Below are positions 27,857-32,482 of a DNA stretch of 32,482 nucleotides, piece by piece; position 1 is the stretch's first letter; each line of letters starts with the position of its first letter. Source of the DNA: Candidatus Rokuibacteriota bacterium (GTDB lineage Bacteria; Methylomirabilota; Methylomirabilia; Rokubacteriales; CSP1-6); assembly GCA_016184305.1 (NCBI GenBank), contig JACPCX010000162.1, positions 1-32,482 on the forward strand, written 5' to 3'. Made by a program: the position numbers and the translations under genes. The notes beneath the pieces are model-generated. The model was not told the origin of the DNA. It searched no databases and worked only from the letters and a program-made list of their open reading frames with translations.

Positions 27857-28168
27857 CTAGACCTCGATCTTCGTGATGCGGACGGCCGTCAGGATCTGCC
27901 GGTGTCCGCGTTTCCGCCGGTAGTTCTTCCGCCGCTTGAACTTGACCACGAGCACCTTGGCGCCCTTCTTCTCCTCCACCACTTCCCCTGTGACCTTCGC
28001 TGACTTGAGCGCCTTGGGCTCCAGGGTGACCTGGCCGTCCTGGGTGACGAGCAGGACGTCCCTGAACTCCACCGCCGTCCCCTTCGTCTGGCCGAGCCGC
28101 TCTACCTTGATGACCTGGCCCGGGGCCACCCGGTACTGCTTCCCGCCCGTCGCGATAACCGCTTCCAT
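27857..28168 (-). CDS. rplU: 50S ribosomal protein L21
   Basis: [24 protein letters not shown]. Confidence 0.98.
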
Positions 28169-28192: not shown

Positions 28193-29056
28193 TTAGGTGT
28201 AGGCGCCCTCCGTCAGCGGCTTGCCTCGCCACATGACCGGGTCGGCCTCCCATCGGTACGGTAGCTCCACCGACCCACCGGGCGAGGAGATCGTCCGCAG
28301 GGCGTCGAGGGCGTCCCCGAGGACGCGGAGATGCTTGTCCCGGTTCCCCGGCTCCCCGAGCATGCTGCCCCGGGGGAAATGCACCCGCGCCCACCGCGGC
28401 ACCATCAGGCGGCGCGTGGCGCCCGGGTTGTTCGACAGCGAGACGGTGGGAATGCCCCAGGCCTCGATCTCCCGCTGGACCAGTCCGCCGGACTGGTGGC
28501 AGACAGGTCAGACGGGTATGACGAGGGCGGCGTCCACCCCCTCGGCCTGAAGGCTCGCGGCGATGGCGGGGGCGGTCTCCTCGGCCAGATCCGCCGCCCG
28601 CGGACAGTAGCCCATGATGCTGTAATGGGTCGGGGCCAGACCCCCGATGACGCCGGCCGCCTCGAGCTCGCGCAGCCGGTCCAGCGGGAAGATCGTGTTC
28701 ATGTCCTCCCGCGCTACGTCGTGAGCGAAGTGGTCGTGGGCGATCCCGAGGGCCCGGATCGGCAACCCCGCGGGAATGGCGCGCCACGTCCAGTCGCCGT
28801 CCCCCGATGTCGCGTCGAAGGGAAGATCCTCCCCGGGACGATAGAGGCCTCCCGTGCTCACCACCGCGATACGGCTCCGGGCCAGTGGTGTCGTGACCGG
28901 CGCCCACGGCGATTCGGTGAAGGCCGGCCACGGGTAGCCCTTGAAGGCGGCGCCGTAGTCGTGCCGCTCGATCAAGGGCAGGGCCTCCGGCCACCAGGCC
29001 GCGTACTTGTCCCTGAACTCCGCGATCCAGCGTGAATCGCTTCTCACCGGGGGCAT
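28193..29056 (-). CDS. PrdB/GrdB-family (proline/glycine reductase selenoprotein B-like) selenoprotein, 287 aa, Sec at codon 183 (TGA 28508-28510)
   Basis: ATG 29056 after AGGAGA. Family motifs IAVVSTGG, D.N..FPLDRLREL...GVIG, EGVDAAL. Read-through of the TGA gives PV-U-PVCHQSGGLVQREIEAWGIPTV and continues in frame into the 28193-28405 ORF. Confidence 0.88.
28479..28497 (-). promoter_or_regulatory. Putative bacterial SECIS hairpin
   Basis: ACCAGUCC-GGC-GGACUGGU: perfect 8-bp stem starting 11 nt after the UGA, with G at the start of the apical loop. Confidence 0.75.
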
Positions 29057-29245
29057 GGGTTCTCCTGGAACACGGGGCCGAGACAGGGGAGCCGCTCGGC
29101 CCACCGCACCCGGCGGTTCTGACAGCGCGCCGGCCCGGGGTCCCGTCCGCACTCCACCTCGGGCCCGTCCGGCAGCTGCGGAGGCCGGTCGGCGAATCCC
29201 AGCGGGAAGAGGATCGTGAAATAGTCGGCTGTCATGCTGTCTTCC

Positions 29246-29890
29246 CTAGGCCGTTCCGAGGTAGCGGGACAACCGCTGCCGGAGGAACAGGCGTGAGCGG
29301 TGCACTCGCGACTTCACCGCGGGCAGGCTGATCCCGAGCGCCTCGGCGATCTCGGGGTTCGAGAGCCCTTCCACGTCATGCATCAGGAAGGCAGTCTTGT
29401 AGTCCGGTGGCAGCTCGTCGATGGCCGTCGTCAGCACGGTCCTGAGCTCCGTCTGCAGGGCCGGCTCCTCCACCTTGCCTGACCAGTCCCCCACGGGATC
29501 GGCGTGCTTCCCCAGGTCGTCGAACGCGGGAAGCAGATCCTCCCAGGACACCTCGTTCCGCTTGCTCTGCCGGCTCCGGAGCTTCTGGTAGGCCGCATTG
29601 GCCGTGATCCGGTAGAGCCAGCTCCCGAAGGCCGACTCCCCTTTGAAGGTGTGAATCTTCCGCGCCGCCGTCCAGAGGGCGTCCTGAACCACCTCTTCCG
29701 CGTCCTGCTCGTTGCTCGTGATGCGGATCGCGAGCCGGTAGACACGGTCGCCATAGGTGGCGACGAGCTGCTCGGCGGCCTCGGGATCCTCGCGGCGCAA
29801 CCGTTCGAGAAGGGCCGCGTCCGGATCCACCCGTCCCGCGCCCCCACGGCTCTGGCCCTGCCGCTCCACGTCGCTTGGCCTGGATACCAT
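29246..29890 (-). CDS. ECF (sigma70 group 4) RNA polymerase sigma factor
   Basis: DAEEVVQD, F..WLYRI..N, region 4 L.DVEGLS..EIAEALGIS..AVKSRVHRSR. Confidence 0.93.
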   Translation of the reverse strand: MVSRPSDVERQGQSRGGAGRVDPDAALLERLRREDPEAAEQLVATYGDRVYRLAIRITSNEQDAEEVVQDALWTAARKIHTFKGESAFGSWLYRITANAAYQKLRSRQSKRNEVSWEDLLPAFDDLGKHADPVGDWSGKVEEPALQTELRTVLTTAIDELPPDYKTAFLMHDVEGLSNPEIAEALGISLPAVKSRVHRSRLFLRQRLSRYLGTA

Positions 29891-29891
29891 G

Positions 29892-30509
29892 TCAGCGAGC
29901 CTCGTACAGGGTCAAATGCTGCTTGAGCTCGGTCACGCACCGCTCCATGACCGAGATGTCGCGCGTGACCTTGGTCAGGAGGATCGCGCCCTCGAGGGCG
30001 GCCACGAGGAACTCTGCCGCGCTCGCCGGGTCCAGGCCTGATCGGAGGCGCCCGCTCTCCTGGCCGCGCGCCAGCACCTCGGCCAGCGTCACCCGCCACT
30101 GGAGGAACATGCCGGCCAGCCGCTGGCGGAACCCCTCATGCACGTCCGACAGCTCGGAGGCCAGATTCCCGATGGGGCAGCCGCCGATGCAGCTGCGCTG
30201 CCGCTGGTTGTCGAGCACACTGTCCAGGAACTCCTGGATCTGCACGACAGGGTCGGCAACGGAATTGGCGAAGGCGGGCTCGAGCGTCCTCTCGACGAAG
30301 GCCTGGAGCATCCGATCGAGGATCGCGTAGCCGAGATCCTCCTTGCTCTTGAAGTAGTAGTAGAAGTTCCCCTTGCCGACACCGCTCTCCTTGAGGACGT
30401 CGTCAAGGGACGTTGCGTGGTACCCGCGCAGGTGGATCAGTTTGCCGGCCACGTCCAGGATCTGATCCCGGGTCGCCGCGCCCTTGGCGCTCCTGACCTC
30501 TACCGCCAT
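29892..30509 (-). CDS. TetR/AcrR family regulator, NemR/LmrA/YxaF-like
   Basis: ATG 30509 after GGAGAG; HTH GYHATSLDDV...GVGKGNFYYYFKSKEDL; GCPIGNLASELS. Confidence 0.92.
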   Translation of the reverse strand: MAVEVRSAKGAATRDQILDVAGKLIHLRGYHATSLDDVLKESGVGKGNFYYYFKSKEDLGYAILDRMLQAFVERTLEPAFANSVADPVVQIQEFLDSVLDNQRQRSCIGGCPIGNLASELSDVHEGFRQRLAGMFLQWRVTLAEVLARGQESGRLRSGLDPASAAEFLVAALEGAILLTKVTRDISVMERCVTELKQHLTLYEAR

Positions 30510-30543
30510 GACATGCTCTCCCCGCCTTCTATTGCCATGCTTC

Positions 30544-30563
30544 TGTACCAACCGGTCGGTACA
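30544..30563. promoter_or_regulatory. Putative TetR operator palindrome
   Basis: TGTACCAACC|GGTCGGTACA, 9 of 10 pairs, immediately downstream of the -10 box. Confidence 0.75.
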
Positions 30564-30592
30564 AACATACATGAGGAGCCTGATCCTGGCAA
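30564..30592 (-). promoter_or_regulatory. Putative sigma70 promoter of the TetR-ECF operon
   Basis: Minus strand TTGCCA-N17-TATGTT, preceded by an A-rich UP-like tract (about 30596-30620). Confidence 0.6.
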
Positions 30593-30877: not shown

Positions 30878-31318
30878 TCAGTCGCCGCCGCCGACGTCCA
30901 CGTACAGCGCGTCGATGAGGAGCTCGTTCTCCCGGGCCTCGTGCTCCTGAGTCCGCCGCGCGAATTCTCTCGCCTGCCTGAGGACCTCCGCGACGGGGCC
31001 GGCCAGGCAGGCCCGCGCCCCCTCGGCCAGCCTGTCCATTTCGGCCAGAAGCACTTCATGCTCCCTCTCGAGCCGCCGGACGGCGCCGAGATGCCGTGAG
31101 GCCTGAGTGCGGACGACGTCGAAGAAGCCGCCCTGAGCCTCCTCGTCCGTGAAGTGGGGCACCATGAGCAACCGGAGCTCCTGCAGCCGTCGCAGCAGAT
31201 CCACGAGGCTCTGCGCGTGGCCGAGCCGCTCGGTCAGCTCCCGGATCTTCCGATGCTCCTCGATGGCCTGGGCATTCGCGTTGGAGATAGACTCCCCACC
31301 GCCCGGTTCGGTCATCAT
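30878..31318 (-). CDS. Hemerythrin-like (HHE cation-binding) protein
   Basis: EEH, HFTDEE, EH, HEARE ligand spacing in a four-helix protein; GAGGAGG RBS. Confidence 0.78.
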   Translation of the reverse strand: MMTEPGGGESISNANAQAIEEHRKIRELTERLGHAQSLVDLLRRLQELRLLMVPHFTDEEAQGGFFDVVRTQASRHLGAVRRLEREHEVLLAEMDRLAEGARACLAGPVAEVLRQAREFARRTQEHEARENELLIDALYVDVGGGD

Positions 31319-31397
31319 GTCGGCGCCTCCTCTGTGACTTCCTCAGCAGTAGCTGGTGGGCGGCGGCGTTCGCGGGAGGAACGTAGGCCGACCCATC

Positions 31398-32408
31398 TCA
31401 CACCTCCCCCGCGATCACGCTGACAATGCGCGCGCCGGGCGCGCGGGTCCGCAGCAGCCGCTCCGCGCGCTCCGGCGCCATCCCGTAGACGGCCGTCGCC
31501 GCCGCGTCGGCGGCAAGACAGGTGCTCGCGGCCACCGTGACGCTGTGGACCGCCGTGCGCCTGGGGGCGGCCGTCGTCGGGTCGAGGAGGTGATGGTACC
31601 GGCGGCCCCGGTGACTGAAGTACTGCAGGTAGTCGCCGGACGTCGCCACCGCCCCGTCGCTGACGGCAACCTCGCCGGCCAGCCGGCTCGGGTGTTGCGG
31701 CGACCGGACTCCGACCCGCCAGGGCCCGCCGGCCTCGGACTCGCCGAGGGCGTAGAGGTCGCCGCCGACATTCACGATGGCCTGCGTGATACCCCGGCGC
31801 CGCAGCGCCTGGACCGCGGCATCGACCCCGTAGCCCTTCGCGATGCCGCCGAGATCCACCTCCACACCCGGGTCCCTGAACCGGACGACGGGGCTGCCGC
31901 GCCACGTGTCGAGGTCCAACCCCCGGTAGAGGCCCCGCCCGGCCAAGCGCCGTACCGCATCCCCCGGCGGTGGGGTGCGGCGGTGGCCCACGTCCCAGAG
32001 ACGGATCGCCTCCCCGAGGCACGGATCGAAGGCACCGTTACTCGCCTCGGCCCACGCCAGGGCCTCCCGGAGCACCGTCGCGGTCTCCACACTCACGGCG
32101 ATTGGCCACGTGGCCGCAAGGCGGTTGGCGCGGCCGATGTCGGAGGTCGCCGAGAAGCGCGTCATGAGCCGCTCGACAGCCTGGAGCTCCTCGATCGCGG
32201 CGTCGATGGCGGCATGCGCCTGGCGCGGGTCCCGGTGGACCACGGCGAACTCGGCGATCGTGCCCATCACGGGGACGGCTCGGCGCACGAGCGTTTGCCG
32301 GCGGTGGGCGGCGATGGGGATGCTGGCCACCACGAAGGCGCCGACCCCCAGCGCCAAGACGCCCCGCCGGGTGAGCGTGAGGGACGGGCCTCGATCAGCG
32401 TTGCGCAT
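31398..32408 (-). CDS. apbE: FAD:protein FMN transferase ApbE with twin-arginine-like signal
   Basis: ATG 32408 after GGAG; TRRGVL plus hydrophobic stretch; VMGT, GAFDP, DLGGIAKGY.VD, VNVGGD, ATSGDY, YHHLLDP. Confidence 0.93.
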   Translation of the reverse strand: MRNADRGPSLTLTRRGVLALGVGAFVVASIPIAAHRRQTLVRRAVPVMGTIAEFAVVHRDPRQAHAAIDAAIEELQAVERLMTRFSATSDIGRANRLAATWPIAVSVETATVLREALAWAEASNGAFDPCLGEAIRLWDVGHRRTPPPGDAVRRLAGRGLYRGLDLDTWRGSPVVRFRDPGVEVDLGGIAKGYGVDAAVQALRRRGITQAIVNVGGDLYALGESEAGGPWRVGVRSPQHPSRLAGEVAVSDGAVATSGDYLQYFSHRGRRYHHLLDPTTAAPRRTAVHSVTVAASTCLAADAAATAVYGMAPERAERLLRTRAPGARIVSVIAGEV

Positions 32409-32482
32409 GCTCTGACTCCATTTCTCCGCCGGGCTTCGCGTCGCAGCCGCCACAGCCCCCCGTCGCCGCCGTGCACGAGCCG
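32395..32482 (-). CDS. C-terminal end of an upstream Cys-rich protein (partial)
   Basis: Open frame ...GSCTAATGGCGGCDAKPGGEMESEHAQR* whose stop overlaps the apbE start. Confidence 0.45.
   Translation of the reverse strand, partial: GSCTAATGGCGGCDAKPGGEMESEHAQR

Follow-up and report, generated by a model that had tools for sequence, protein, structure and literature searches.

The contig analysed here (32,482 nt in full, hereafter the window), from a Candidatus Rokuibacteriota MAG, encodes a PrdB-like protein of 287 residues whose internal UGA, on comparative evidence, almost certainly specifies selenocysteine (Sec) within a single gene product, and which very probably stands alone at the level of both the locus and the genome. 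Proteins of this kind have been catalogued since 2005 as non-clostridial 'PrdB', and the gene adds a member to that set rather than a new principle. Plain ORF calling cuts the gene at the UGA, as an earlier sequence-only reading had noted of its ORF track. That reading left the strand unstated; the gene lies on the minus strand, and the plus frame of 28193-29056 is non-coding. With TGA translated as U, positions 29056→28193 form one 287-aa frame with a single UGA at codon 183 (28510-28508), which is followed, as had been claimed, by 104 further sense codons up to the TAA (PVCHQSGGLVQREIEAWGIPTV...PR...VHFPRGSMLGEP in the read-through translation). The Sec context is ALVIPV-U-PVCHQSGG. The features of the gene and its immediate surroundings are:

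28193..29056, minus strand: complete coding sequence of the PrdB-like selenoprotein, 287 aa by read-through translation, with ATG at 29056 and TAA at 28195-28193
29062..29066, minus strand: Shine-Dalgarno-like AGGAG, seen in the sequence 5 nt ahead of the ATG
28922..29056, minus strand: N-terminal two-helix aromatic extension, approximately residues 1-45 (F14, Y18, W21, Y41-P42), from model and alignment
28508..28510, minus strand: in-frame UGA, read as Sec183, the U of UxxC; the UGA is kept in relatives and the U aligns with that of PrdB
28499..28501, minus strand: Cys186, second residue of UxxC and putative resolving cysteine, followed by His187
28479..28497, minus strand: SECIS-type apical stem-loop with an 8-bp stem and GGC loop, from covariation
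27857..28168, minus strand: rplU (L21), by Pfam, 24 nt past the stop of the gene; context only
29246-29890, minus strand: ECF sigma factor, by Pfam; context only
29892-30572, minus strand: TetR, by Pfam; context only

The start site is kept in orthologs (MPPVKSD). In the AlphaFold model (pLDDT 96, pTM 0.94) the protein forms an α/β domain in which U183 opens helix 184-199, with two N-terminal helices (10-30 and 34-37) ahead of it. The aromatic N-terminal motif was present in 42 of 76 aligned loci (four short loci were left out) and in 0/3 canonical PrdB proteins, and the extension is missing in members from the Chloroflexota and Actinomycetota. C186 and H187 are invariant across all 76 aligned loci and 3/3 canonical PrdB sequences, as are F80, D88, H107, D118, R195, E198, T204, P220, R221, G230 and G234, indicating that more than the redox motif has been kept in common with canonical PrdB. 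RNA-Seq contigs from one run, mostly 95-99% alike, span 28403-29231 including the UGA site, though contigs of this kind cannot prove transcription. A promoter and terminator scan returned one sigma-70-like site ahead of tetR and no terminator, and was uninformative, while modelling P0003, the natural Cys ortholog, as a homodimer gave a score of 0.00, which is evidence neither way.

The assignment of Sec draws together the conservation of the UGA, the existence of Cys homologs, covariation in the SECIS-type element and the alignment of U on U with true PrdB. Homologs occur in 43 of 61 genomes of the order. TGA occupies the Sec column in 31/31 distinct relative loci examined (one duplicate row dropped) and in all of 80 GTDB loci spanning Rokubacteria, Methylomirabilota, deltaproteobacterial lineages, Tectomicrobia, Acidobacteriota, Chloroflexota, Actinomycetota and Bacillota. 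These are the best 80 of 87 confirmed loci; part of the peptide encoded over the stem was prescribed by the search pattern, and some loci recur among the order-level homologs, so the two sets are not fully independent. At the same column of 268 homologous proteins, 177 end, 53 carry Cys (including an ortholog 60% identical), 14 carry Ser, 17 another residue and 7 were unscorable; Thr was found in 2 of the 268. The sequence past the UGA is conserved, with 69-98% identity to nine orthologs compared with 58-96% ahead of it, and with synonymous changes. On these grounds the selenoprotein proposed by the sequence-only reading holds up well. Several full-length members of the same clade (P0007-P0010 and P0012) replace Sec by Ser or Thr (S/T-P-x-C), and are possibly proteins of altered chemistry or non-catalytic copies. 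Two family members also lie close together at L114:3265-4987 (a Sec copy with a Cys copy after it) and at L125:618-6726 (both Sec, on opposite strands).

An 8-bp hairpin with a G-first loop had been noted 11 nt downstream of the UGA, and the same element was recovered here as the stem ACCAGUCC/GGACUGGU with loop GGC, starting at the 11th base past the UGA; a lower stem may reach over 28507-28471. By energy alone the hairpin is mildly unusual (-20.9 kcal/mol, z -2.16, 5/200 shuffles equally good). Eight pairs with a loop G in the same register, which was defined from this gene, occur at 15 of 69,600 genomic TGA triplets. Across a 35-row alignment, 93.6% of cells were paired and 4/8 pairs showed two-sided changes, with 0/500 shuffles matching either the pairing or the covariation score and slid controls reaching 18-36%, while two measures that count pairs or types did not go beyond the shuffles (81 and 198 of 500). 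All eight pairs were intact in 74 of the 80 GTDB loci and seven of eight in the other 6, the loop beginning with G in every case. In contrast, the two Cys-codon homologs with available DNA retain just 5 and 4 of the eight pairs.

A scan of the genome for hairpins of the same geometry gave 16 candidates. Approximately ten of these had motifs resembling those of selenoproteins; SelD, redoxin- and AhpD-like genes and two UGSC-like proteins were among them. Apart from the gene described here, likely selenoproteins with this SECIS geometry were seen on contigs C10, C52, C68, C70, C121, C200 and C215, comprising a UGC redoxin, a UQHC protein, a TlpA-like UPNC protein, two AhpD/CMD-like proteins and two UGSC-like proteins, one of them 555 aa as read owing to a long C-terminal fusion. 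In the literature, a Methylomirabilota MAG with 63 predicted selenoproteins is cited in a 2026 review (PMC13188914).

Of the Sec machinery, selD is present in the MAG (88.8% completeness) and itself carries an in-frame TGA, but selA, selB and tRNA-Sec (selC) were not found in the assembly, a shortfall that weighs against Sec recoding and goes halfway to the refuting condition of missing Sec machinery set by the sequence-only reading. Their absence, together with the 177/268 database proteins that finish at the UGA, is what would be seen if the codon were a real stop (leaving a split gene or pseudogene) or were read as Trp. Such an explanation is scarcely credible, as identity to orthologs is as high past the UGA as ahead of it and accompanied by synonymous changes, the same codon recurs in 80/80 loci, selD has an in-frame UGA of its own, and UGA terminates other genes in this genome as well as the 104-codon tail in some orthologs. 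Elsewhere in the order selA scored above cut-off in 54/61 genomes. Five close relatives encode selB (5/5) and tRNA-Sec (4/5) clustered with selA, and the three congeners have selA (3/3), selB (3/3) and tRNA-Sec (2/3). In two congeners the selCAB block continues to a gene that we take from its sequence to be ileS, and the MAG assembly contains no ortholog of this gene or of most genes in between (best match 27-28%). Isoleucyl-tRNA synthetase is essential, and its loss along with the selCAB block suggests that the missing selA, selB and selC probably reflect an assembly gap.

Matched to family models, the read-through product hit the Pfam GRDB family (PF07355) as anticipated, at 46.1 bits against a gathering cut-off of 22, over profile positions 205-343 of 347. 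The earlier label of 'PrdB/GrdB-like' is thus retained in its first half: the best NCBIfam match is PrdB (TIGR04483), whereas the GrdB-like architecture falls away, only the C-terminal part of PF07355 being matched. Scores remained below the equivalog cut-off for PrdB (152.4 versus 300 bits) and below those of the GrdB, GrdF and GrdH models (51-58 bits versus cut-offs of 65-800). Named database matches came from Ca. Rokubacteria, Methylomirabilota and NC10, and the family as a whole comprises 1,705 representatives at 50% identity. Compared with annotated PrdB proteins of prd operons (34-39% identity, U183 falling on PrdB's U), such as those of Clostridioides, Terrisporobacter and Enterococcus, the protein shares the domain, the Sec position, UxxCH and the invariant core, but differs in its motif (PVUPVCHQ rather than AGUGTCHR), its length (287 rather than 241 aa), its SECIS register, its separate clade and the lack of prdA, prdH, prdD, prdE and prdF. 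GrdB, GrdF and GrdH (TIGR01917, TIGR01918, NF040794, NF040795) likewise have a homologous C-terminal catalytic region with UxxC, but are approximately 430 aa long with an N-terminal domain, whereas the protein here lacks the first ~200 profile positions; no GrdE or GrdA accompanies it in this genome, whereas both types occur elsewhere in the order.

Phylogenetically, the gene falls outside the canonical PrdB clade. In a 101-row tree its own 17-row clade and the 4-row canonical clade each received 100/100 support and lay among many solitary clades. An AU test with the two clades constrained to group rejected that arrangement on 36 rows (p-AU 0.003) but not on 101 rows (p-AU 0.13), and neither a sister relation nor a donor is claimed. 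Several divergent paralog clades occur within the one order, with up to 7 matches per genome. Among solitary relatives, the Roseomonas and Haematobacter RefSeq proteins named 'glycine/sarcosine/betaine reductase selenoprotein B family protein' are also of PF07355 type with no partner among their listed neighbours, but have CxxC at the same column (Cys for Sec) and belong to a different clade at ~30% identity. The proteins catalogued as 'Proline reductase PrdB' far from clostridia (PMC1088965, PMC2398784, PMC1794560) are plainly called PrdB there and resemble the present one by description (PF07355 plus UxxC); the clade here differs in having the N-terminal extension. Searches for solved relatives gave none by phmmer, only weak unrelated matches by profile search, and no Foldseek match at E ≤ 0.001. 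The best VIA-align hit (Z 8.1, rmsd 3.1, 134 aligned, LacI-type) was tied with SDR and other Rossmann-like folds and is uninformative; weak matches of this sort do not demonstrate a new fold. For the UGSC family (NF041046), a possible remote homolog, 1 of 105 members matches at E 4e-4; the hhalign comparison was not significant (probability 1%, E 0.054), though it aligns the UxxC registers. By eye, two UGSC proteins of this genome (C52:1384 and C200:5450) resemble the PrdB catalytic half (window 28420-28510) in having U-x-x-C followed by E..GIP.

Non-clostridial PrdB has a substantial record in surveys of selenoproteins. For example, the Sargasso Sea data yielded 42 PrdB against 1 GrdA (PMC1088965), GOS yielded 235 PrdB and 110 Cys homologs (PMC2398784, Table 2), PrdB is listed for Anaeromyxobacter and Geobacter (PMC1794560) and 'Proline reductase' ranks among the top families (PMC5029168). 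The preprint of Haft and Gwadz deals, in its available portion, with clostridial proteins. Among the publications found, none concerned solitary PrdB-like proteins or tested one outside Stickland systems; supplements may list the clade.

The stand-alone status of the protein is predicted from the absence of partner genes, using tblastn and HMMs. The sequence-only reading had reported no adjacent PrdA/GrdE, GrdA or thioredoxin gene, and none was found beside the gene, which is followed by rplU and preceded by genes for an ECF sigma factor, TetR, hemerythrin and ApbE. The genome-wide search that it had proposed for prdA and grdE was also negative: tblastn found no PrdA, PrdH, PrdD, PrdE or proline racemase in the genome, with PrdA queries capable of picking up distant GrdE in control loci, and a PrdC query matched only RnfC and NuoF. 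A prd or grd partner was found at 0/80 loci, 51 of which extend for at least 3 kb on both sides. The PrdA model TIGR04480 was found in 0/5 genomes, but that search lacked a responding positive control, and PF09338, for which true PrdA was detected as a positive control, was therefore used instead. PF09338 occurred in 5 of 50 carrier genomes examined (from the 80 carriers), versus selA in 44/50, and in 0/4 genomes of the genus; three chromosome-level carriers were likewise without it. Order-wide, GrdE-type PF09338 was present in 23/61 genomes and GrdA in 20/61, while among the 11 genomes with a true ortholog PF09338 occurred in one, beside its own GrdB, and GrdA in none. Approximately one third of the genomes of the order have GrdE- and GrdB-type genes plus GrdA, some in multiple copies (L043-L048, L081, L082). 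To our knowledge the lineage that holds these glycine-reductase-like systems is not known for Stickland chemistry. In the plasmid of Peptoclostridium acidaminophilum, whose table shows no prdA ahead of prdB, PF09338 finds a PrdA-like frame (L087:4700-5900).

These data bear on two explanations in which a partner exists. A true Stickland-type D-proline reductase subunit whose prdA was lost from the assembly would agree with PrdB being the best NCBIfam match, with 39% identity to annotated PrdB, with the label 'D-proline reductase PrdB' that JGI gives to many matches, with proB and proA lying 1.6-4 kb downstream and with a sister relation to PrdB that the 101-row tree does not reject. It is nevertheless very improbable given the score of 152 bits against a cut-off of 300, the separate clades at 100/100 each, the lack of a racemase or PrdH in the genome, PF09338 missing from 45/50 carriers, PrdA not found in 5/5 genomes with TIGR04480 (where no control responded) and the membership of proBA in the rplU-obgE block. 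Improbable to a lesser degree is a B subunit that pairs with a substrate-binding subunit encoded at another site, unrelated to PrdA and GrdE or too distant from them. Canonical PrdB does bind PrdA, both being required for catalysis (PMC11229817), most carrier genomes are incomplete MAGs, and in this genus a few genes separate it from an upstream Rnf cluster, which encodes the PrdC relative RnfC; however, no family is co-located with the gene over the 80 loci, the Rnf cluster is genus-specific with nuo genes in its place in other genera, and the three chromosome-level carriers lack PF09338.

The flanking genes form an ancestral locus and are not partners of the selenoprotein, as judged from gene order. 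In Rokubacteria the order sigma-gene-rplU is constant (sigma in 16/16, tetR in 15/16 and rplU in 15/16), yet in 23 of 36 genomes of the same family the sigma gene sits directly beside rplU with the gene absent; it is carried as a passenger by an older locus. A TetR/ECF regulon was rejected because the sigma-rplU gap of 95-301 bp in these 23 genomes leaves no room for the gene. A link to proBA was also rejected, as proB and proA belong to the minus-strand block headed by rplU (rplU-rpmA-obgE-proB-proA), in which rpmA and obgE are presumably what their sequences suggest. Similarly, a link to Rnf or PrdC does not apply as a general feature, Rnf lying upstream in this genus only. No neighbour family recurs across phyla in the 80 loci and no transporter or pathway is linked to the gene, its flanks varying by lineage; redox neighbours (CMD/AhpD, C-GCAxxG-C-C, SelR, SUF/Rrf2) are scattered, each in a single lineage. 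These neighbour counts are lower bounds, the GC-based gene finder having at times taken shadow frames. The window also holds genes for PDH E1, NuoF, proA and proB. PDH and complex I had been cited in favour of a non-Stickland role, and while PDH E1 and NuoF are indeed encoded in the window, the argument is weak in view of the GrdE-type (23/61) and GrdA (20/61) genes within the order. The window closes with apbE and hemerythrin genes (30878-32482 and G000:C114; L049, L079), which in a congener form the tail of a genus-specific ferredoxin-oxidoreductase and Rnf cluster (rnfC, rnfE and rnfA by NCBIfam; we take the remaining genes to belong to it from their sequences). Other genera have a second nuo operon in place of the Rnf cluster.

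With the partners absent, the predicted chemistry, to which we give somewhat less than an even chance, is that of a solitary Sec/Cys enzyme performing reductive cleavage of a C–X bond that has been activated beforehand. In D-proline reductase the substrate is held on the pyruvoyl group of PrdA and the Sec of PrdB attacks its α-carbon, a Cys variant being inactive (PMC11229817), although the steps are still hypothetical according to a review (PMC10298544). As no iminium would form without PrdA, the present enzyme would require a pre-activated substrate, and the betaine GrdI and fluoroacetate FarE proteins, which are not proproteins (PMC10838667), offer a precedent for pyruvoyl-free attack by Sec. 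In the proposed sequence of events, SelB·Sec-tRNA would bind the stem-loop 11 nt past the UGA, leading to insertion of Sec at position 183, a step that is well supported. The product would be an α/β protein of one domain that has the catalytic core of PrdB and needs no pyruvoyl partner, a point well supported genomically. The Sec183 selenolate may then attack an electrophilic carbon of a small molecule, expelling a heteroatom leaving group, after which Cys186 would resolve the selenoether to a selenenylsulfide and set the product free in reduced form; recycling of the enzyme may fall to a general cellular reductant (thioredoxin/TlpA-type or a small thiol). Candidate substrates would carry an onium leaving group (quaternary ammonium or sulfonium) or be α-substituted carbonyl compounds. 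More speculatively, the aromatic N-terminal extension could cap the site in place of PrdA.

Several observations count against cleavage of a C–X bond. The pyruvoyl-free precedents GrdI and FarE retain a GrdE-like partner, the Ser and Thr homologs (14 and 2 of 268) are unexplained by a strict Sec/Cys cycle, the flanking genes give no clue to a substrate, the extension is missing in the Chloroflexota and Actinomycetota members, and selA, selB and selC were not found in the assembly. A possible but rather unlikely alternative is a general redox-maintenance enzyme, with a thioredoxin-type UxxC acting on disulfides, sulfoxides, N-oxides or peroxides and no C–N or C–S cleavage. The solitary gene, its housekeeping contexts and the scattered redox neighbours of single lineages suit such a role, as do several other UxxC/CxxU redoxin-like candidates in the genome, and the Sargasso Sea paper, in whose available text 'PrdA' does not occur, places PrdB among thiol-dependent redox selenoproteins (PMC1088965). 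In contrast, no thioredoxin-fold or clear structural match was obtained (a weak match excludes nothing), the many invariant non-redox residues in common with PrdB suggest a shaped small-molecule pocket, and the divergent paralog clades, with up to 7 matches per genome, fit substrate diversification.

A broader extension of the C–X cleavage reading is doubtful and is put forward as conjecture: the clade might constitute pyruvoyl-free selenoenzymes of facultative bacteria from soil and groundwater, cleaving C–N or C–S bonds of onium or α-substituted carbonyl compounds and using aromatic helices instead of PrdA, and canonical PrdB might be one offshoot of a larger solitary radiation with an unsolved fold. 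Both aerobic and anaerobic respiration have been predicted for Rokubacteria (PMC5712423). If the conjecture is true, selenium chemistry of the Stickland type would extend to a hidden, widespread catabolic or detoxifying activity. For annotation, 177/268 homologs are truncated at the UGA, and the name D-proline reductase is given to many whose genomes lack PrdA, with the result that proline reduction is over-called in metagenomes. A compact protein that has a confident model and natural Cys and Ser variants offers a practical handle on the function of solitary PrdB-like proteins.

Two further members of the family were noted in the same genome. A second solitary PrdB-like selenoprotein (G000:C224:6574-7500, plus strand; L008) is 41% identical to the first and has the same PVUPVCHQS and stem, but belongs to another clade. 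Genes for a Zn-dependent dehydrogenase, a HisD-like protein, an MttB-like methyltransferase and a corrinoid protein lie close to it both here and in a congener, and CoA-transferase genes do so in other genomes, a weak hint that this second clade may act in the catabolism of methylated amines or acyl-CoA. In addition, a 104-aa ORF (G000:C80:612-926, plus strand; L170) resembles the two termini of a protein from a third PrdB-like clade (L021 type) with the catalytic middle gone, and would be an internal deletion or a misassembly.
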